NCBI GenBank assembly: GCA_050293845.1
Contig: JBNKNM010000155.1
Location: forward strand, 1 to 13,244
Source of the DNA: Pseudobacteriovorax sp.
Lineage (GTDB): Bacteria; Bdellovibrionota_B; Oligoflexia; Oligoflexales; Oligoflexaceae
DNA: 13,244 nucleotides
Direction: 5' to 3'
Below, one piece after another: positions 115 through 13,244 of the stretch. How positions within the stretch are numbered: position 1 is the stretch's first letter; each line of letters opens with the position of its first letter. The notes under the pieces are model-generated. The model saw only the letters and a program-made list of their open reading frames with translations, had not been told where the DNA came from and did no database searches. A program made the translations under genes and the position numbers.

Positions 115-2184
115 TCACTTTAGCTTATTTGGTTTTTTTTCAGTAACGCTTATGACTTCATCGGCGATGTTTTCTATAGCGAGAACTTTTTTACTAGCAC
201 CTAGCTGTTCAGCAGACTTCGGCATGCCGTATACCACGCAGCTTTTTTCATCCTGAGTTATGGTGTAGGCACCATTTTCGCTGAGTTTCAGTAGGCCTTT
301 AGCACCATCAGCTCCCATACCAGTTAATAAAACCCCCACACGAGGACCTTTTAATGCAGCTAAGGAATGAAAAAGAACATCTACAGATGGGCGATGGCCA
401 TTCACTTTTTCTCCATCATAAACCTTAACCTTATACTGACTCCCTGACTTGACCACCTCCATATGGAAATTGCCAGGAGCAATCAACGCCAGACCAGATT
501 CTAGGGTATCACCATTTTCTGCTTCTTTCACATTGATCTCACAAAGATTATGCAGTCTCTCGGCAAACGATCGGGAATAAAATTCTGGTATATGTTGCAC
601 GATAACAATAGGAGGAATATTTGCTGGCAGTTTTATTAGAACCTTCATGATGGCTTCTGTACCACCTGTAGAAGCGCCAATGGCAATAATATAGGATGGG
701 TCAAAATTATTGGCAAAAACAGTATTTAGCCCTTTTAGATCATCATTAGGGTTGTTTTTAGTCGATTTTATAGCTTGGTTAAGCTTAGCTTCCAGAACTT
801 GTTTTTCCCGATCAGAAATTGTAGCAAAATCGCTTTTTAAATAGTCTGTAGCACCAGATTCCATTGCTTTAGCTAGTTTTCCCTCGTCTTGACGCGAAGA
901 AGCTACCAAAATTGTAGGAATATTAACGTGACTTTTTATTTTATTCAGATGAATGTAAGCATCGCACTCTAAGATAAGAAGATCCGCTTCTTTTTTTCTA
1001 ATACGGTCCACAGCTTCGCTGGCAGAACGCACAACATCGAATCCTACTGACTTAAAGCCAGGTATTTGGTTGATGACTGTTCTAATATTGGGAGATATTT
1101 TTATTGATGATTGTAATGTTATAACTTTGATTGTTTCTTGAATAGGGTTTGATTTTTTAATATAACTCGTTTTTGTTCCCTTGTCTACATTTTTAGCAAG
1201 CTCAAGACGGTGTGGCTTTTTATGGATACTAGATTGCTTACGGTGGTGTGTTTGCCTTAAATCAGTAGATTTTTTTCGAGATACATTTGCTTCTTCGGAC
1301 TCTTTTTTAGTATCATTCACAGAATTAACTACGGACTCAACACTGGATTTGGTATATATGGATTTTCCAAGATGTTTGACAGGTAATTTGGCTCCTAATA
1401 GGGATTCTGATACTCCAATTAAAAATAATCCATAAGGTTCCATATTTTTTAAAATATTTCTTGATATGGATTCTATTTCTTGAATTGAAAAATAGATAAA
1501 GACATTGCGGCAGAAAATTATATCGAATTTCTGCAAAAAAGTTTCTTTGTTTAGTGTCAGAAGATTGATGGTTTTGAATTCACAATGATCCTTCAAAGAG
1601 TTTTTAACCTTTGAAAAATTAGAAATATTTCCTTGCCCTCTAGTCCAGTGATTGGAACGATAATTTATAGGGACACGGCTGAGTTCTTCATTGCTATAGA
1701 CTCCATTTTTAGCCCAATGTACCGATGCTCCATCAACGTCACTAAACAGAATTTTGTAATCTAAACTAGCACCCAATTGTCTGAGGTGGTAGTCCAAAAA
1801 CATGGCAATGGTATAACCTTCTTGACCTCGGGAACAAGCAGCACACCATATGTTAATACTAGTTTTTTTTTGCTCTTTTATTTGGGCTATAAATTGAGGC
1901 AATATGGAATTAAGGTGATCAAAATGAACCTGTTCACGAAAGAAAAATGTATGATGAGTAGTAAGCAGTGAAATTAGAACAGGAATCTCATCTTCCTCGT
2001 GATTTTGCAGATACTCCCAATATTCTGCGGCACACAAGCCTCCCATGTTGCGCAGATGTTTGCTAAGTCTTGATAGTACCAGTGAATACTGCTTTTCCCC
2101 CAGTTGAACACCGGTAATGCTGGATATTTTCTTGGCAATTGCTTCAAAAATCTGACGATCATGGGATTCGGCAACAGCAGACAA
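115..2184 (-). CDS. cheR-cheB: CheR-CheB fusion: N-terminal CheR methyltransferase, basic linker, degenerate receiver domain, C-terminal CheB methylesterase
   Basis: CheR motifs TTHHTFFFRE, IWCAACSRGQEGYTIAM and FDIIFCRNVFIYF in residues ~1-280. CheB motifs IAIGASTGG (Ser505), IVQHIP, HRPSVD and LTGMGADG at the C-terminus. TTG start with AAGGAG 8 nt upstream (2193-2198). One uninterrupted 689-aa frame. Confidence 0.93.
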   Translation of the reverse strand: MSAVAESHDRQIFEAIAKKISSITGVQLGEKQYSLVLSRLSKHLRNMGGLCAAEYWEYLQNHEEDEIPVLISLLTTHHTFFFREQVHFDHLNSILPQFIAQIKEQKKTSINIWCAACSRGQEGYTIAMFLDYHLRQLGASLDYKILFSDVDGASVHWAKNGVYSNEELSRVPINYRSNHWTRGQGNISNFSKVKNSLKDHCEFKTINLLTLNKETFLQKFDIIFCRNVFIYFSIQEIESISRNILKNMEPYGLFLIGVSESLLGAKLPVKHLGKSIYTKSSVESVVNSVNDTKKESEEANVSRKKSTDLRQTHHRKQSSIHKKPHRLELAKNVDKGTKTSYIKKSNPIQETIKVITLQSSIKISPNIRTVINQIPGFKSVGFDVVRSASEAVDRIRKKEADLLILECDAYIHLNKIKSHVNIPTILVASSRQDEGKLAKAMESGATDYLKSDFATISDREKQVLEAKLNQAIKSTKNNPNDDLKGLNTVFANNFDPSYIIAIGASTGGTEAIMKVLIKLPANIPPIVIVQHIPEFYSRSFAERLHNLCEINVKEAENGDTLESGLALIAPGNFHMEVVKSGSQYKVKVYDGEKVNGHRPSVDVLFHSLAALKGPRVGVLLTGMGADGAKGLLKLSENGAYTITQDEKSCVVYGMPKSAEQLGASKKVLAIENIADEVISVTEKKPNKLK

Positions 2185-2202
2185 GTGTGGTTCTCCTTTT
2201 GT

Positions 2203-4347
2203 CTAATCCTTAAAGTTAGGATCATCAGCAGAAGGTATATCTTCAAAACCTGACGAGACTTTTTTAAGTGATGAGTTTGAACTGGTGTCACTTTCTTCCG
2301 CGATCTCGTCTTCATCATGGTCGGAACTAATCTTATGGACATTGGTAGGAAGGTCGTCGGAAATACTTTCGGTTGCATCTAAATCTAGTATAGTTTTATC
2401 TTTAGCTTTCTTTCTTTTTTTGAACTTAAACATTTCAAAAAATTCTTCGATGAAATTAAATTCAAAACCCTGTTGATTTGTAGCGGAGTCTTTATCAGCT
2501 CCGAATATCTCAGATTCTAGTTCCAATATAGCTTGACTTAGTATTTCAGATTGTTCTGATAAAAGATTAGAGCAATCACTGGTTTCATGAGCCATGTCCG
2601 AATTGGAGTGGGTTGTGGCGTCAAGCTCATTCATCGCGATAGAAATATTGTGGACGCCTTCCGCTTGCTCTTTAGATGCATTGGATATTTCATGCATGAG
2701 TTCTTTAACATGACTAACATGATCCACTACTTCTCCCAATATCTCATCGCAACGATTGGCAACATCAACACCTCCAGCGACCTTGTTACTGCCTTCTTGA
2801 ACCAATTTACCCATTTGTTTCTTTGAATCCTTTACAATATGCTCCACACTTTCACGGCTGGTTCGTAACAGTTCAGATATTTCCTTTGAAGCATTACCAC
2901 TCATCTGAGCTAAGTTTCCTACCTCTTCAGCAACAACTGCAAAACCTTTTCCATGATCACCTGCTCGAGCTGCTTCGACCGATGCATTAAAAGAGAGTAG
3001 CTTTGTTTGAAAAACAATATCGTTAATAATAGTTGTTTTGCTGGATATTTTTCCGATGATTTTTACAATACTCTCTATTTGTTGGTTTCCTTCTTCAACA
3101 CGGGTCATCATCTGGGTAATGGAGTTTTGAATCTCATCCATTGCTTCGCGCATCTGATTTACTGCTTCTCGCCCTTCAAAAGCAATTTGATGTGAAAGAT
3201 TAGCTTTCTCGGCCGAAGAATTGGCATTTTCCACACTTTTATTAACCATGGCTGTGATTTCATTCAGCGTGGCAACCGTTTCCTGGATTGCAGATGCTTG
3301 TTCAGTGGTGGCAACAGAAACACGATTCGAAGTGCTTTTGAGATTAACACTGCTTTTTTTAGTGTCATGGGAAGATAATCTAATGCGATCAGATATGAAG
3401 GATAAAGCCTTTGTGGTTCGATTGATCAATAACAGCGCTATAAACATGATTAAGAAGGTGATAAACACAACAGTTGTTTTAACCACATTTATAAAACTCT
3501 CAATTTTTTGAGTACCTTTAATCTGATCCTGGGTAGTCTTTTCTATGGTATCTATACCTTTAAGGATATACTCTTCAGCAGTAAGAATATGTTTTTGTAG
3601 ATCTTGGGAACTATTTTTTAATTTTATATGATTTTTATGAATTTGATCTAATAGATTGAGATAATTAGAGCTCAATCTTTCAAGATTGATTAGTTTAGAA
3701 GAATTTGATCCGCTAATGATTTTTAGTAGCTCTTGGTGTGCATTTTTAGTGTTACCTATGTAACTAGTCTTCCAAGTGCTTAAGTAATCCTTACTAGCTT
3801 CTATAAATTTGTTAGCATAAAGAGTTATTTTGTATTTTCTAGGGCCAACTAATTCACCAGTTTGTTTGTTGATTTGCTGGCTTAACTTTGAAAGTTCTCC
3901 TATCATTCCTTTTCTTTGGTTTCCTTCGGAAGATGCTAGTTTAACTATTTCATTGAAGGAATTGATGTAGGACTGGAGGCTGTTATCTATAGTTTTGATA
4001 GCCTCTTTTTCTAGAATATCTTTAGCATCATTATCAAGAGTTTTTATTGACTTCTGGAAATCGCTGTAACTTTCCTTTATGAGGTCTAGATATATTTCAT
4101 CTCTGGAACTCATAAAGTCTTTTTCTGTTCTGGTAATCTCGAGCATTTGTATCTGGAGATTAAATAGATCGGTCTCAATTTTTTGAAAATAGTTTATGGA
4201 ACGCCGATATTGGTTACTGACAATATTTCCCAAAAAGACACTACTAATAATACTAGCTGTGGTAATGATAAATATTGATCCTAAAATGATACGCATTTTC
4301 CCTTTGAGGGATAGGGATGCTAGTAGGTTTGCAATAAATTTCATCAT
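2203..4347 (-). CDS. Methyl-accepting chemotaxis protein (2 TM, ~245-aa helical periplasmic sensor, no obvious HAMP, long C-terminal tail)
   Basis: Hairpin-tip motif [36 protein letters not shown] and methylation-type EQ/QE pairs ([16 protein letters not shown]). TM1 ~res 20-41, TM2 ~res 293-311. ATGA overlap with the cheW stop; the start could be the second ATG (4344). Confidence 0.95.
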
Positions 4348-4886
4348 ACCGCCTTTTGCTCAGTTGTTGGGTTTTGGATAAGCTCTTTATCTTTATGATC
4401 AAGAATTTTATCTACATCCAAAAAAAGAACTAGATTTTTGTCACTTTTATAACATCCAGTAACAAATTCGGTTGAAGGGTTTGATTCAATTTCCGGTGGA
4501 GGAGAAAAATCTTCATTATCGATGGCAATGACTCTGTTAATAGAATCAACCACAACACCTAACTGAGTGTATTCCAAGTCAACAATAATAACTGCTGTTT
4601 CTGTAGTAGATTCTTGTTCTGAAATCTTCATTCTTTTACGAAGGTCGATTACAGATAAAACTTGACCCCTGAGGTTCATAATACCTAGATAGTATTCAGG
4701 GGTGAATGGGACATTTGTGGTTTCTGGGACAGCGATTACTTCCTTTACAGTAAGAAGAGGAATAGCAAATTTCTCTTCACCTAAATTAAACTCCAGATAA
4801 CGACCGCAATCTAAATGCCCATTTTTTGAAGAGTGAGTTTCATCTAATTTGGGCTCACCATTGTTAAAGTCAAATGTTTCAGTCAT
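4344..4886 (-). CDS. cheW: Chemotaxis coupling protein CheW
   Basis: [38 protein letters not shown] and LGVVVDSI motifs. AGGA SD, and ATGA overlap with the cheA stop at 4883-4886. Confidence 0.96.
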
Positions 4887-6616
4887 GCTGTGATCCTTTT
4901 CGCAGTTAGGTCAATCAATTTTCGCCTGCGAATCAAGTTTGAAAGTTCAACAATGAGCGCCGGCTTTCCATCGCCGAGTATAGTGCTTCCACTAAACTCC
5001 TTAAGTCCTTGAATTTCATTGCCGAGGTTTTTGATAACAATCTGCTGCCGGCCTACAATCTCATCTACAATAATAGCGAAGATTTTATCCTGAGATTGAG
5101 CTATTAGTGCTATTTGTTCCCGATTTTTTTCAAGTGTATCAATGTTGAACAGGTCATCTAACCTGAATACTGGTAAGCGTTCTCCTCTCAGAGTAAGTAC
5201 TTCTCCAAGGGCGGTAGATTTTGCAATTTCAAAGTCTTTTATTTTGACGCTTTCTCTGATATCTGCTAATGGTATAACAAATTTCTCTATACCAGTTTGT
5301 ACTACAGTGCCTTCGATTATGGAAAATGTTTGCGGAAGGGTGATTCTAAATTGACTCCCTTTATGGAGGGTTGATTTGATGTCAATTTCTCCCGACATTG
5401 CTTTGATATTGTTACTCACTACGTCCATGCCTACACCGCGCCCGGAGATATCTGTAACTTTATCTTTTGTACTAAAGCCGGGATGAAAAATGAGATGCTG
5501 GATCTCAGAGTTAGACAGCTTGGCTTTAGAACTAATAATTCCTAATTTAATAGCTTTTTCACGAATTACATCCAAATCAATACCGCTGCCATCATCGGTG
5601 ATGTAAAAGACTAATCTTCCGGCCTCATGGCAGGCTTGAAGAACGATATTTCCTGTGGGAGGTTTACCATTTTTCTCGCGAATATCAGGTAGCTCAATAC
5701 CGTGATCCACTGCATTACGAATGATATGAACCAGAGGATCACCAACGAGATCTAAAATGGATTTATCGACTTCAACATCTTCACCAATAACCTGTAAGTT
5801 GACTTTTTTACCAAGTTTTGTTGTGATGTCGCGTACGATGCGGCGCATTTTTTGAAAGATAGGCTTTAAAGGTAGCATCCGCAAGGAAACAGAAACGTCC
5901 TGAACGTCTTTGCTAATTTTAGAAAGTTGTTTAACCGTGCTCTCTAAAGCTGTGCCAGAAAACTGGTCAATCTGTTCATCTAAGACTGTTAGCAAGATCG
6001 CCATTTCTCCGATATAGTTGACAAGCTTATCAATTCTTTCCTGACTAACTTTGATTTGTTCTTGGCTTTTTCTTTTATGACCATGAGATTGATGCCCCAT
6101 TGCTCTTTGTTGGTGGTCATGGTGATCTTCAGTTAGCTCCTCCTCTTCATCAAAGAAACCAAATCCACTAGCAGGAGCGGCTTTTTTTGCTGTCGCTGCT
6201 GATGTATTCAAGGGCAGTTTTAGCTTCTCAATTTCTTGGACTAACTCGTCAAAGTTAAAGGATGCTGACAGATCATCTTTTAAAGTCTCGATCATCTCTT
6301 TGATGCGGTCATTGCACTTTAATAGAGTTCCAATAACTTCCCGGGAAATCGATAATCGATTCTCTTTAACTTCTAAAAGTAGAGCTTCTACTTCATGGGT
6401 AAATTTACCTACTGGACTCAAACCAACTGCCATGGAGCTGCCTTTTAAACTGTGAGCAGCTCGAAATACCTGGTCAATAACACCAGTCTCGTGGGGGCTA
6501 TCCTCAAGACTTAAAAGCCCCGCTTCCATTTCTTCGATAAACTCATCAGCTTCACTTAAAAATGTTTGGATCAGCTGCTCCATCTCAGAATTTTCGAATA
6601 CTTGGCTCAAGTACAT
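4883..6616 (-). CDS. cheA: Chemotaxis histidine kinase CheA lacking a P2 domain
   Basis: HPT motif FRAAHSLKG, dimerisation helix, HATPase motifs HIIRNAVDHGIE / DDGSGID / ISGRGVGMDVV, and a C-terminal CheW-like P5. The real start may be the TTG at 6610, because AAGGAG abuts the ATG at 6616 but lies 6 nt from the TTG. Confidence 0.96.
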   Translation of the reverse strand: MYLSQVFENSEMEQLIQTFLSEADEFIEEMEAGLLSLEDSPHETGVIDQVFRAAHSLKGSSMAVGLSPVGKFTHEVEALLLEVKENRLSISREVIGTLLKCNDRIKEMIETLKDDLSASFNFDELVQEIEKLKLPLNTSAATAKKAAPASGFGFFDEEEELTEDHHDHQQRAMGHQSHGHKRKSQEQIKVSQERIDKLVNYIGEMAILLTVLDEQIDQFSGTALESTVKQLSKISKDVQDVSVSLRMLPLKPIFQKMRRIVRDITTKLGKKVNLQVIGEDVEVDKSILDLVGDPLVHIIRNAVDHGIELPDIREKNGKPPTGNIVLQACHEAGRLVFYITDDGSGIDLDVIREKAIKLGIISSKAKLSNSEIQHLIFHPGFSTKDKVTDISGRGVGMDVVSNNIKAMSGEIDIKSTLHKGSQFRITLPQTFSIIEGTVVQTGIEKFVIPLADIRESVKIKDFEIAKSTALGEVLTLRGERLPVFRLDDLFNIDTLEKNREQIALIAQSQDKIFAIIVDEIVGRQQIVIKNLGNEIQGLKEFSGSTILGDGKPALIVELSNLIRRRKLIDLTAKRITA

Positions 6617-10052: not shown

Positions 10053-11177
10053 TTGATTTTGATAAAAGAAAACATACACCGTGGTCTAACTGATATTTAT
10101 GTTGATACCACCGAAATTTCACTAGTAAATGGCAATGAGGGAAAACTGATCTATCGTGGCTATCCCATAGAAACTCTGGTGCATCAGCCTTTCCTAAAGG
10201 TGGCTTATCTTCTCTTACAAGGAGTTTGGCCTGAGGATCAGGAACTCTTAGAGTTTACAAAAATTTTCAAACTGTCCGGTACTCTGAGTCGATCTGATAT
10301 CCATATAATCAATGCCTTACCTACGAATTTACATCCCATACGAGTTTTGCAGGGACTGGTGCCTCTTTTTGAAGAGAGACAGCAAGATTCTGTCGAGGAG
10401 CAGGGGATCAATTTGATCGCTAAAATTCATATGGCACTTGCAGCTTACTATCGTAAATCAAAAGATTTACCTATTTTAGACGCTCAACCTGATCTCGATT
10501 TATTAGATAATTTTTTTTACTGCTTTCACGGTCGTCAGCCTAGCAGTGATGAAAGCAATATTTTTCGCGTCACTCAGATCATACAAATGGAACATGGTTT
10601 TAATGCTAGTACCTTTGTCACAAGATCGGTGGCTAGTACGCTGGCAAGTATACCTGCAGCAATTGCTGCAGGTATAGGAACTTTATCGGGTTCGCTCCAT
10701 GGTGGCGCTGATGAAGCTGCCTTAAGAATGGCCAAAGACATTCCCCATATAAGTGAAGTTGATCCCTATATTCGGAGAAATTTAGCAAATAAACAAAAAA
10801 TCATGGGTATGGGACATCGTGTTTATCGTGTGGTTGATCCTCGAGCCAATATCCTTAAACCTTTAGCTAGAAATTTGTGTTCCGGAAGTCCATTTGAGCA
10901 AGATTTTTTAATTTTAGAAGAAGTCGAGCGTGTAATGGAGAGCCTTATGAAGGCAAAAGGAAAAGCCATAAAGGCTAATGTCGAATTTTATAAGGGTGCT
11001 GTTCTCCAAGCTTTAGGATTTCCTATGGAATACTTTACTTCCCTATTTGCTTGCGCTCGTATATTTGGTTATGTGGCACATTTTTTGGAAAGCAGGAAGG
11101 ATAATAAATTGGTACGGCCTAAGGCCTATTATATAGGACAAAGACCCTCTAATGATTTTAACGGGGCAATTGAATAA
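10053..11177 (+). CDS. Citrate/2-methylcitrate synthase family protein (short type; NVEFY variant)
   Basis: GKLIYRGYPIE, EHGFNASTF, GSLHGGADE, MGMGHRVY..DPRA, NVEFY, FACARIFG and LVRP..Y motifs. The start is probably the in-frame TTG at 10059 (7 nt after AGGA). Confidence 0.92.
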   Translation: MILIKENIHRGLTDIYVDTTEISLVNGNEGKLIYRGYPIETLVHQPFLKVAYLLLQGVWPEDQELLEFTKIFKLSGTLSRSDIHIINALPTNLHPIRVLQGLVPLFEERQQDSVEEQGINLIAKIHMALAAYYRKSKDLPILDAQPDLDLLDNFFYCFHGRQPSSDESNIFRVTQIIQMEHGFNASTFVTRSVASTLASIPAAIAAGIGTLSGSLHGGADEAALRMAKDIPHISEVDPYIRRNLANKQKIMGMGHRVYRVVDPRANILKPLARNLCSGSPFEQDFLILEEVERVMESLMKAKGKAIKANVEFYKGAVLQALGFPMEYFTSLFACARIFGYVAHFLESRKDNKLVRPKAYYIGQRPSNDFNGAIE

Positions 11178-13068
11178 CAAATTTGGTCTGTGGGTATTCT
11201 TCATCAAGGTACAATTTGCCATTATGATGAGTCATAATTCCACCGGCTATGCTCAGCCCTAGCCCCTTGCTTTCAGTGTTATCTGTAGTGAAAAAGGGAT
11301 CAAAAATTTTATTGTGTACCGAGAAAGGAATTCCAGGTCCGCTATCAATGACGCTGATTTCAATTTGGGTGACTGTTTGACGATATTCGATGGTGATGAC
11401 CTTATTCTGGCTCTTGTTGAGTGCTTCGATTGAGTTGTTTATCAGAATCAGAAGGACTTGCATGATTTGTCCCTGGTTGCAATGGACATAAATATCGGTA
11501 ATGGGCTGTGTGATAAGTTTTATGCCAAGACTATTGAGCCGTTCCCGGCAAAGATCCAAAGCAAATTGTACTGTTTCTCTGATGTTGACTTCAGCGAATT
11601 GGGGCTTTCCTGTATCATCGTGTGAATATGCTTTCAAAGCATCAATAATTGATAATACTCGCTTTACTCCGCTATCGATTTTGCTTAAGGAAGTTTTAAA
11701 GTCGGATATATTTATATTGTTACTGCTGACCATAGCATTAAGTCGATATTGATGTCCGGCAATAATAGCTAGAGGATTATTTAGTTCTTGGGCCAGTCCG
11801 TTGGTTAAAGTGCCCAAAGAGGAAATTCTTTCTTTTTGATAGAGCTGATTGGGATCAATGCTAGTTGATTCCGGTATTTGTTGGGGAGTATGTTCTGTTC
11901 CTATAGTTGTAAGTGATGTTTTATTAACAGGATTATAGCACATTATAAAAATAGTAGAAAAGATAAAGTTATTGACAAGCAGTATTGTCATTAACTTAGA
12001 AATATATGTAATATCAACAGGGTAAAAGCTAGATTCCATTGCTACGACCGTTACTATAGCTACAGAAGTTGCAGCGAAAATCAATAGTGCTCCGGGAAGG
12101 TTATTTTTACTTTTTAAAATATGCATCACAGCTATAATCACAAATAGGCAGCCTGTAATAAGAGATAGTATTAGTAGTATAAAATTGGTAGTCTGAGGAA
12201 TATTTAAAAAAGTCGTAGGAAGAAGTAGTATGATAGCAAGACTCAATCTATATAATGCTACTTTCCCGTACTTTCCCATACTTTCTTTTGCGATCTTGTA
12301 GACAAATATTTGCAATAGGACGAGTGATAACCATAATAGTACTGAAATAGTGAAATGACTTATATTTGGAAAATTTGTCCAATAACTGAGAAAAATGATG
12401 CCATAAATTTTTCCCAAAATCATGGTAATCATCAAGTTTGCTGCCAATAACAAGAGATAGCTCCAACGATTCCAAAGGTAGGCTAGAAATCCAATTAATA
12501 GATTAGTTACCAATAAGCTTCCCCACAAGATACCGTCGATGGCTTTGTTTTTTTCCATGGATGTATAGAAGTTTCTTTGATCTTGAATTGATATTTTAAA
12601 GTTTTTGAAAAAAGGTTTGTATATACGAATTAAGAGTCTTATGCTTTCTTCTGGTTCTATTTGCAAAGGAATAGCGTAGCCAGCCATTCGCACTTGGTAG
12701 GAAAGTTCGGATAGGCTTACACCCTGTCGATATGTTTTTTTGATTGTTTCATCGCGATAAATGTAAAAATCAATTTCAGAAATAAGTGGGCTTTTTACCG
12801 TCAAAAAAAGTTTCGCTATTGAGGGTAGTTTGTTTGTGATGTTACAGTTAAACCAATTGTTCTGAGCATATTCCAGGCCTTTTGTTGGTATGTTGTTGAT
12901 TTTATTTAAAATATCGTCGGGATTAGCGATTCTCTCCAAAGTCATTGAATTACAATTTGTGGTTATTTCTTGTTTGTACTCGTAACGATCAATGCTAATA
13001 ATTGCTGTTGCAGGTGTGATCCAAGCAAGCAAAAGCGAAGCAGTTAGTATGAAATGCAATACTTTCAT
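11158..13068 (-). CDS. 7TM-DISM-like membrane sensor histidine kinase homolog with H-box His->Gln (probable pseudokinase)
   Basis: Signal peptide, ~150-aa extracellular domain (NNWF..I, P.ISEIDFYI), about 7 TM helices. ERISSLGTLTNGLAQELNNPL (canonical GIAHEINNPL), DSGPGI, IFDPFFTT, GLGL. AAGG SD 6 nt upstream. Confidence 0.88.
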   Translation of the reverse strand: MKVLHFILTASLLLAWITPATAIISIDRYEYKQEITTNCNSMTLERIANPDDILNKINNIPTKGLEYAQNNWFNCNITNKLPSIAKLFLTVKSPLISEIDFYIYRDETIKKTYRQGVSLSELSYQVRMAGYAIPLQIEPEESIRLLIRIYKPFFKNFKISIQDQRNFYTSMEKNKAIDGILWGSLLVTNLLIGFLAYLWNRWSYLLLLAANLMITMILGKIYGIIFLSYWTNFPNISHFTISVLLWLSLVLLQIFVYKIAKESMGKYGKVALYRLSLAIILLLPTTFLNIPQTTNFILLILSLITGCLFVIIAVMHILKSKNNLPGALLIFAATSVAIVTVVAMESSFYPVDITYISKLMTILLVNNFIFSTIFIMCYNPVNKTSLTTIGTEHTPQQIPESTSIDPNQLYQKERISSLGTLTNGLAQELNNPLAIIAGHQYRLNAMVSSNNINISDFKTSLSKIDSGVKRVLSIIDALKAYSHDDTGKPQFAEVNIRETVQFALDLCRERLNSLGIKLITQPITDIYVHCNQGQIMQVLLILINNSIEALNKSQNKVITIEYRQTVTQIEISVIDSGPGIPFSVHNKIFDPFFTTDNTESKGLGLSIAGGIMTHHNGKLYLDEEYPQTKFVIQLPR

Positions 13069-13094
13069 AATGAACCTTTTTCTATTCTGCGAGG

Positions 13095-13121
13095 TGATCG
13101 GTATATGAGAGTTTTATTTAA
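13095..13121 (-). promoter_or_regulatory. Sigma28-like promoter upstream of the 7TM kinase gene
   Basis: Minus strand TTAA-N15-ACCGATCA, ending 26 nt before ATG 13068. Confidence 0.45.
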
Positions 13122-13168
13122 TGCCAATAGCTGGGTAAAAATTTTCCAGGATGAGCTTGGTTAGCAAA

Positions 13169-13244
13169 GTCAATTACCCCCACCTAAAGGAGGGGGCTTG
13201 TGAGGTGACTCGCAAGGGAGACTAGTTGACCAGACCACTAGCAA
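13169..13244 (+). ncRNA. 5' part of an OMEGA omegaRNA / HEARO-like RNA at the end of an IS200/IS605-family (IscB/IsrB-type) element; truncated by the window end
   Basis: GTCAATTA (13169-13176) pairs with TAGTTGAC (13223-13230). This helix encloses hairpin CCCCCACC-TAAA-GGAGGGGG and hairpin CTTGTGAG-GTGA-CTCGCAAG (GNRA loop, G.U pair). It matches my recollection of the GTCAACTACCCC...CTAAAG...GGCTTG...GTTGACCAG start of IscB-associated RNAs. Abrupt rise in GC content. Confidence 0.78.

Follow-up and report, generated by a model that had tools for sequence, protein, structure and literature searches.

The last 76 nucleotides of the 13,244-nt stretch of DNA analyzed here (the window, which is the entire contig C155) very probably represent the 5' part of an omegaRNA (HEARO) that belongs to an IscB element of the IS200/IS605 type (positions 13169-13244, + strand). 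The element is highly repeated, and for this reason the assembly breaks at the end of the contig and cuts the RNA. This is a known kind of element, which an earlier note made from the letters of the window had called correctly, and not something new. What the follow-up adds is an IscB family that has expanded recently, to about 40 copies, and whose features are a compact nuclease of 442 amino acids, a defined omegaRNA and an inferred 5-nt TAM (ATGAA). About 28 natural pairs of guide and flank are visible in a single genome, which makes the family useful material on the spread of OMEGA elements; its protein is also a candidate compact editor, although many IscBs have already been characterized. 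The part that could teach something is a possible insertion niche at start codons, with an overlap of stop and start codons.

The earlier note had described a nested junction with a closing helix, a hairpin with a TAAA loop and an 8-bp hairpin capped by a GNRA tetraloop. The sequence is as described, and the minimum free energy (MFE) fold of the + strand RNA reproduces the described three-way junction exactly (-29.2 kcal/mol; z -2.82; 3 of 200 shuffled sequences folded as well). Its closing helix comprises 8 bp, one G.U pair among them, and joins positions 13169-13176 (GTCAATTA) to 13223-13230 (TAGTTGAC), as is also seen in the structure line of the HEARO alignment. The GC-rich hairpin CCCCCACC-TAAA-GGAGGGGG occupies positions 13177-13196, and the 8-bp hairpin CTTGTGAG-GTGA-CTCGCAAG, with its GUGA tetraloop and one G.U pair, positions 13197-13216; both are present on the + strand in the MFE fold and in the HEARO alignment. 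The fold of the - strand is different and weaker (-24.4 kcal/mol; z -1.25; 19 of 200 shuffled sequences as good), in keeping with the proposal that the structured RNA is read from the + strand.

Searching the whole window against Rfam at gathering thresholds yielded zero matches, because the HEARO match is truncated and two thirds of the RNA lie past the contig end. When positions 12900-13244 were scanned with E-value thresholds, HEARO (RF02033) was the sole match, on the + strand only and at 13169-13244 (36.3 bits; E 3.8e-6; the alignment spans positions 1-66 of the 211 in the model and is marked as truncated on the 3' side); the fragment in the window alone thus scores below the gathering score of the model, which is 83 bits. 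The genome itself contains five HEARO matches, three of them above the gathering score. The best of these, on contig C10, covers model positions 1-211 with 119.7 bits, and the complete RNA folds with a z-score of -4.0. Its first 76 nt are identical to those of the window (76 of 76), so that the identity of the RNA that the earlier note had proposed is borne out by the covariance model in the window fragment and in a complete copy.

One could read the 76 nt instead as the TnpA-binding end hairpin of a palindrome-associated element devoid of RNA function, its likeness to HEARO being incidental. The partial score below the gathering score fits this reading, as does the first hairpin, which has a similar counterpart at the far end of the element (CCCGGCC-CTAAAGAGA-CCGGG). 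We nevertheless consider it very improbable: the identical sequence continues in C10 into the 211-position HEARO match and then into iscB, and the + strand folds better than the - strand. The hairpin at 13177-13196 is stem 1 of the omegaRNA and, as DNA, the subterminal hairpin of the transposon end.

The omegaRNA reading is further backed by the recurrence of the boundary at position 13169. A search of the window's own genome with the first 32 nt of the repeat (up to four mismatches allowed) revealed 28 junctions, that of the window included, at which the repeat opens at the same base as 13169 with sequences like GTCAATTA after unrelated 5' flanks. The multi-copy boundary that the earlier note had asked for is hence present at 27 other junctions. 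Twenty-four of the 28 run into a contig end, and the same 76 nt are found at 100% identity at many contig ends. The base preceding the junction is A in nine cases, T in 12, G in five and C in two. For the opposite, ORF-side boundary, which we defined from a fully assembled older copy of about 892 nt in contig C14, 39 junctions were recovered; the repeat ends there with ...CCCGGCCCTAAAGAGACCGGGTTTCCTGGAGAAGTTTGATGAA and is followed by unrelated sequence, and 32 of these junctions lie at contig starts.

None of the five sequencing runs listed for the stretch is registered as RNA. Depths were taken from the Logan contigs of two runs that contain the window: the repeat core stands at 357 vs. about 9 for its flanks (run X1) and at 180 vs. 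about 4.5-5 (run X2). This corresponds to about 40 near-identical copies, a number that is derived from metagenome contig depths, where another organism could carry the same element. By our reconstruction, the family element is about 1.64 kb long. Its 238-nt omegaRNA scaffold is separated by a 65-nt spacer from an iscB ORF of 442 amino acids, which extends to the last bases of the element. The missing interior of the repeat, the fragmentation of the genome into 741 contigs and an estimated contamination of 1.2% raise the question of whether the contig end is an assembly or binning chimera that joins a repeat from another organism in the sample to C155. This is extremely improbable, since contigs of this genome contain 67 junctions with either end of the repeat, several copies are embedded in host sequence to their left and right (C14, C275 and C99), and loose ends occur at the same two boundaries in independent contigs of the two runs.

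Both ends of the repeated IscB element fold as hairpins in single-stranded DNA (z -3.4 to -3.6 on the ORF side; z -1.9 to -3.0 at the omegaRNA end), and the two subterminal hairpins have a C-rich arm and a CTAAAG loop in common. The two element ends differ in sequence, and subterminal hairpins occur in place of terminal inverted repeats, as in IS200/IS605 elements. Apart from the one-sided TAM, the flanks at both ends contain no common duplicated motif, that is, no target-site duplication. The scaffold therefore overlaps a transposon-end hairpin, as had been foreseen, with position 13169 as the element end and a similar hairpin at the opposite end. The omegaRNA side is indeed a transposon end; taking it as the left end did not hold, since in the published convention, in which TnpA defines the ends, it is the right one (Meers et al., bioRxiv 10.1101/2023.03.14.532601).

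The earlier note had expected an iscB gene downstream. In C10, an ORF starting with MLAFVLNRHGK begins 65 nt past the HEARO match, after which this contig also ends; in the older copies in C14 and C275, the ORF begins 68 nt after HEARO. A full-length iscB gene is absent from every contig of the assembly. Contig C321 starts inside an ORF with a canonical IscB N-terminus (PLMP, GLDSGSK, RRMYRRSRRGRK), which is truncated after 173 codons. Querying a protein collection with this fragment led to P0001, a protein of 442 amino acids encoded on a 1530-nt contig. Its N-terminus corresponds to the ORF start in C10 together with the C321 fragment, its residues 297-434 match contig C462 at 99%, and 17 contig ends encode its last 21-34 residues with 100% identity. 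We also noted that C462 (1589 nt) carries its IscB C-terminal fragment between two copies of a 77-nt sequence, together with a run of eight N; this layout is probably a scaffolding or k-mer artifact of the assembly.

Judged by its domain architecture, P0001 is an IscB protein, with nuclease activity predicted. It matches the Pfam profiles RRXRR (3.9e-60; residues 4-181) and HNH (5e-12; residues 201-247) and finds solved IscB chains with E-values from 8.7e-37 to 2.5e-34. Upon alignment to PDB 11hr, the motifs GLDSGSK, RRMYRRSRRGRK, VELASF, HVHHI...N...H and HFVDAAVIA all align, so that the RuvC-I aspartate, the RuvC-II glutamate, the HNH residues and the RuvC-III histidine/aspartate of P0001 line up with those of the solved IscB. 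The PLMP motif, the RRXRR bridge helix, the split RuvC domain and the HNH domain that the earlier note had told us to look for are thus all present in the family protein, any ORF of the window's own copy lying beyond the contig end. Altae-Tran et al. reportedly demonstrated IscB-omegaRNA activity in 2021.

The copies in C14 (43946-44837, corresponding to L003:846-1737) and in C275 (447-1333) consist of HEARO and an ORF of 193 amino acids. They are about 84% identical to each other and about 87% identical to the main family. Their ORFs correspond to residues 1-67 of P0001 joined to residues 308-442; they are without the bridge helix, RuvC-II and HNH, and the Pfam match is restricted to RRXRR at the N-terminus. 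Across these ORFs, dN/dS is 0.82 over the full length and 1.0 for the C-terminal part. Each copy also carries a private deletion of nine codons. Near-neutral dN/dS values together with private, independently acquired deletions mark both ORFs as decaying relics, and we have rejected a functional mini-IscB on these grounds. Miniature derivatives, in which the omegaRNA-side end is joined directly to the ORF-side end, are found in C99 (17460-17667; about 200 nt), C17 (54645-54681; about 60 nt) and C7 (32358-32391; at least 35 nt). The joint of the C17 micro-copy falls in the CCTAAAG sequence common to both end hairpins.

The non-autonomous copies that the earlier note had named as an alternative to an iscB ORF hence exist in this genome, as the 193-amino-acid deletion relics and as elements of about 200 and 60 nt. 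This raises the question of whether the copy in the window is itself a decayed or non-autonomous derivative (omegaRNA only, with a deleted or truncated iscB, or a miniature) that would be mobilized or homed, if at all, by the proteins of other copies. The window copy is seen for 76 nt only, with any ORF beyond the contig end, and the derivatives in C14, C275, C321 (truncated at codon 173), C99, C17 and C7 give this possibility some substance. We consider it unlikely on several counts. The 76 nt of the window are identical to the young main family and not to the old copies that are about 87% identical to it. A high-depth contig follows the C14 mini-copy up to the deletion junction (codon 67), departs from it at precisely this point and goes on as C321-type sequence, which implies that the abundant family does not carry the deletion there. 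This core contig, at a depth of about 40 copies, runs from the omegaRNA into an ORF of the full-length type and extends 196 nt past the deletion point. Finally, the approximately 40 copies estimated from depth are about as many as there are junctions. A copy of the full-length family thus remains our preferred reading of the contig end.

The sequence ATGAA adjoins the repeat at 38 of the 39 ORF-side junctions (for example C99:17662, C46:105 and C38:35622). An empty-site search within the genome that covered the 67 flanks of both ends uncovered a paralogue of one guide-side flank in C158 that reads through the junction and continues with ATGAA exactly there. In a second paralogue, in C290, similarity is lost exactly at the junction and ATGAA is not found, a case that is uninformative or contrary. 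In 16 of the 38 copies, a host ORF of 100 amino acids or more starts with the ATG of this motif, vs. 15.4% among 5000 ATGAA sites drawn at random (binomial p 7e-5). With a lower limit of 60 amino acids, the junction ATG opens an ORF in 17 cases, 14 of them with Pfam matches. In eight of the 17 (PFK, RpiB, Mur ligase, GST_N, MFS_1, EamA, GNAT and Hsp70), the alignment to a Pfam profile begins at profile positions 1-3 and no later than residue 11. Profiles that begin at the N-termini of these ORFs indicate that the ATG is the host's own start codon. Taken together, the read-through in C158, the enrichment of ORFs and the Pfam N-termini show that ATGAA is host sequence and does not belong to the element. 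From these insertion sites we infer that the TAM of the family is ATGAA. Insertion beside a fixed motif of 4-5 nt at one end is typical of IS200/IS605 elements.

The position of this sequence bears on the layout of the iscB gene. Read up to the junction sequence, the element ends ...GGAGAAGTTTG; with ATGAA assigned to the host, the element proper, without the TAM, ends ...GAAGTTTG. The stop codon TGA of iscB is therefore made up of the TG of the element and the A of the host ATG (a TGATG, or UGAUG, overlap), and a Shine-Dalgarno-like GGAG is present inside the element end, 7 nt upstream of the host ATG. Among bacterial genes, starts of the ATGAA kind (Met-Lys or Met-Asn) are the most common. 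It is conceivable, and we advance this tentatively, that the IscB family is adapted to insertion exactly ahead of host start codons, such that a single operon of guide, omegaRNA, iscB and host gene would be transcribed from the host promoter and 5' UTR, with translational coupling between iscB and the host gene. If true, such a start-codon operon would provide the external transcription for IscB guides and, through translational coupling, keep the host gene expressed; a low-cost insertion niche of this kind could also explain the approximately 40 copies. Were the arrangement selected, the TAM choice of a transposon-nuclease pair would be linked to the translation signals of its host, and the transcription of the guide would be explained.

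Shine-Dalgarno-like motifs in the omegaRNA-side flanks were found in eight of 28 cases vs. a background of 16%, which is not significant (p 0.065). A keyword search of open-access text returned no paper on start-codon insertion or on a stop/start overlap of IscB elements. Among more distant relatives of P0001, 32 of 43 loci were analyzed and 31 of these had a stop codon; ATGAA lies at -3 to +15 nt of the iscB stop in eight of the 31, and five of these eight have a downstream ORF of at least 60 amino acids. This is only a hint of generality, judged by the position of the stop codon.

According to the preprint by Meers et al. (bioRxiv 10.1101/2023.03.14.532601), sequence that lies outside the element and upstream of the scaffold provides the guide of IscB omegaRNAs; the guide needs transcription entering from outside, and IscB elements tend to share the orientation of the gene upstream of them. 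The 16 nt of host sequence directly 5' of the scaffold (13153-13168; + strand) are the predicted guide segment of the window copy, as judged from the unrelated flanks of the junctions and from published IscBs. The host gene next to it, at 11158-13068 on the - strand, encodes a 7TMR-DISM sensor histidine kinase (open reading frame list; Pfam HATPase_c and 7TMR-DISMED2). A guide length of about 16 nt is known from characterized IscBs. The kinase gene is transcribed away from the insertion, and the element lies in the intergenic region, 100 nt upstream of its start. The gene upstream of the window copy hence points the opposite way, unlike the tendency of published IscB elements. A simple consensus scan of positions 12900-13244, which is of a kind that does not demonstrate absence, returned no sigma-70-like promoter and no terminator-like site. 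With a divergent upstream gene and no promoter-like site found, transcription of the guide would have to come from the intergenic 100 nt.

A DNA search for a partner contig of C155 in four related genomes found matches of only about 65% identity, which lie within the kinase gene, and revealed no empty site; synteny around the kinase orthologue in genome G002 is not conserved. Elsewhere in the window, positions 115-6616 (- strand) hold a chemotaxis cluster with a 689-amino-acid protein that combines a CheR methyltransferase with a CheB methylesterase, an MCP, CheW and CheA; it is followed by two more histidine kinases, a LysR regulator and a citrate synthase.

The life cycle we envisage for this element, following the published OMEGA model, would begin with a transcript that enters from the host flank and joins a guide of about 16 nt (13153-13168 in the window) to the scaffold. 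The element would be excised by a Y1 transposase (TnpA) provided in trans, and the IscB-omegaRNA complex would recognize and cut the empty donor joint, which consists of the guide match and, directly after it, the TAM ATGAA. The element would then be restored through recombination with a sister copy. The genome contains 23 matches to Y1_Tnp (PF01797), genes as well as fragments (examples are C43:6360-6716, C143:3004-3366 and C31:71-430), the top eight of which are open frames that cover most of the profile. These eight fall into at least three similarity groups. A short-word blastn comparison of the eight best Y1 loci revealed no TnpA gene with matching ends, merely chance matches of 8-12 nt. 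In the flank of the C10 copy, at about 340-500 (- strand), the element appears to sit inside a transposase-like frame (...DFGDVRLSKRVQAFS..., translated by eye), and a 48-nt stretch of this flank recurs in C294 at 92% identity.

HEARO-IscB was not found in the one other genome of the same genus, and nine of 14 searched genomes of a sister genus (g6) contain HEARO followed by IscB ORFs of 377-431 amino acids. These sister-genus elements (L019-L027) differ in their first hairpin (CCCGCCAC-TGAA-GTGGCAGG), and their iscB stop is followed by 50-100 nt of structured sequence; since their ORF thus finishes well short of the element boundary, the close packing of ORF, element end and TAM in the present family is not general. 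The HEARO RNA was first reported by Weinberg et al. in 2009, as cited in the review PMC13565253. The RNA studied here agrees with RF02033 in matching from model position 1, in forming the same three-way junction with the GUCAA...UUGACCAG closing helix and the CCCC..UAAAG..GGGG hairpin, in lying upstream of iscB on the same strand and in having a 5' edge that coincides with the transposon end. It differs in its second hairpin, for which the consensus has a 4-bp stem with a GAAA loop and the present RNA 8 bp with GUGA; the window holds only the first third of the HEARO RNA.

On the protein side, P0001 resembles OgeuIscB and the solved complexes (PDB 7xht, 7utn and 11hr) with E-values of about 1e-35 to 1e-37, and PLMP, RuvC-I, RRxRR, RuvC-II, HNH and RuvC-III align. 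P0001 is shorter, with 442 amino acids vs. about 495 for OgeuIscB and the solved IscBs, and HMMER leaves the C-terminal TAM-interacting part unaligned. The TAM of OgeuIscB is given as NWRRNA in PMC12660989, vs. the inferred ATGAA here. The 193-amino-acid relics are superficially similar to IsrB, which is without HNH, and to the nuclease-dead TldR in their lack of HNH and RuvC-II, but they are far shorter than IsrB and near-neutral (dN/dS 0.82), which speaks for decay rather than for a new functional class.

A close published counterpart is ISGst5 with GstIscB from Geobacillus stearothermophilus, which we compared by its published description (Meers et al., bioRxiv 10.1101/2023.03.14.532601). 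It is likewise a non-autonomous IS605-type element in which HEARO precedes iscB and the right end delimits the omegaRNA side, and for which TnpA is expected to act in trans. The TAM of GstIscB, TTCAT next to the left end, is the reverse complement of ATGAA as written on the iscB strand here. Unlike ISGst5, the present family numbers about 40 copies, and its iscB ORF extends to the very end of the element, with a stop codon that the inferred TAM completes.
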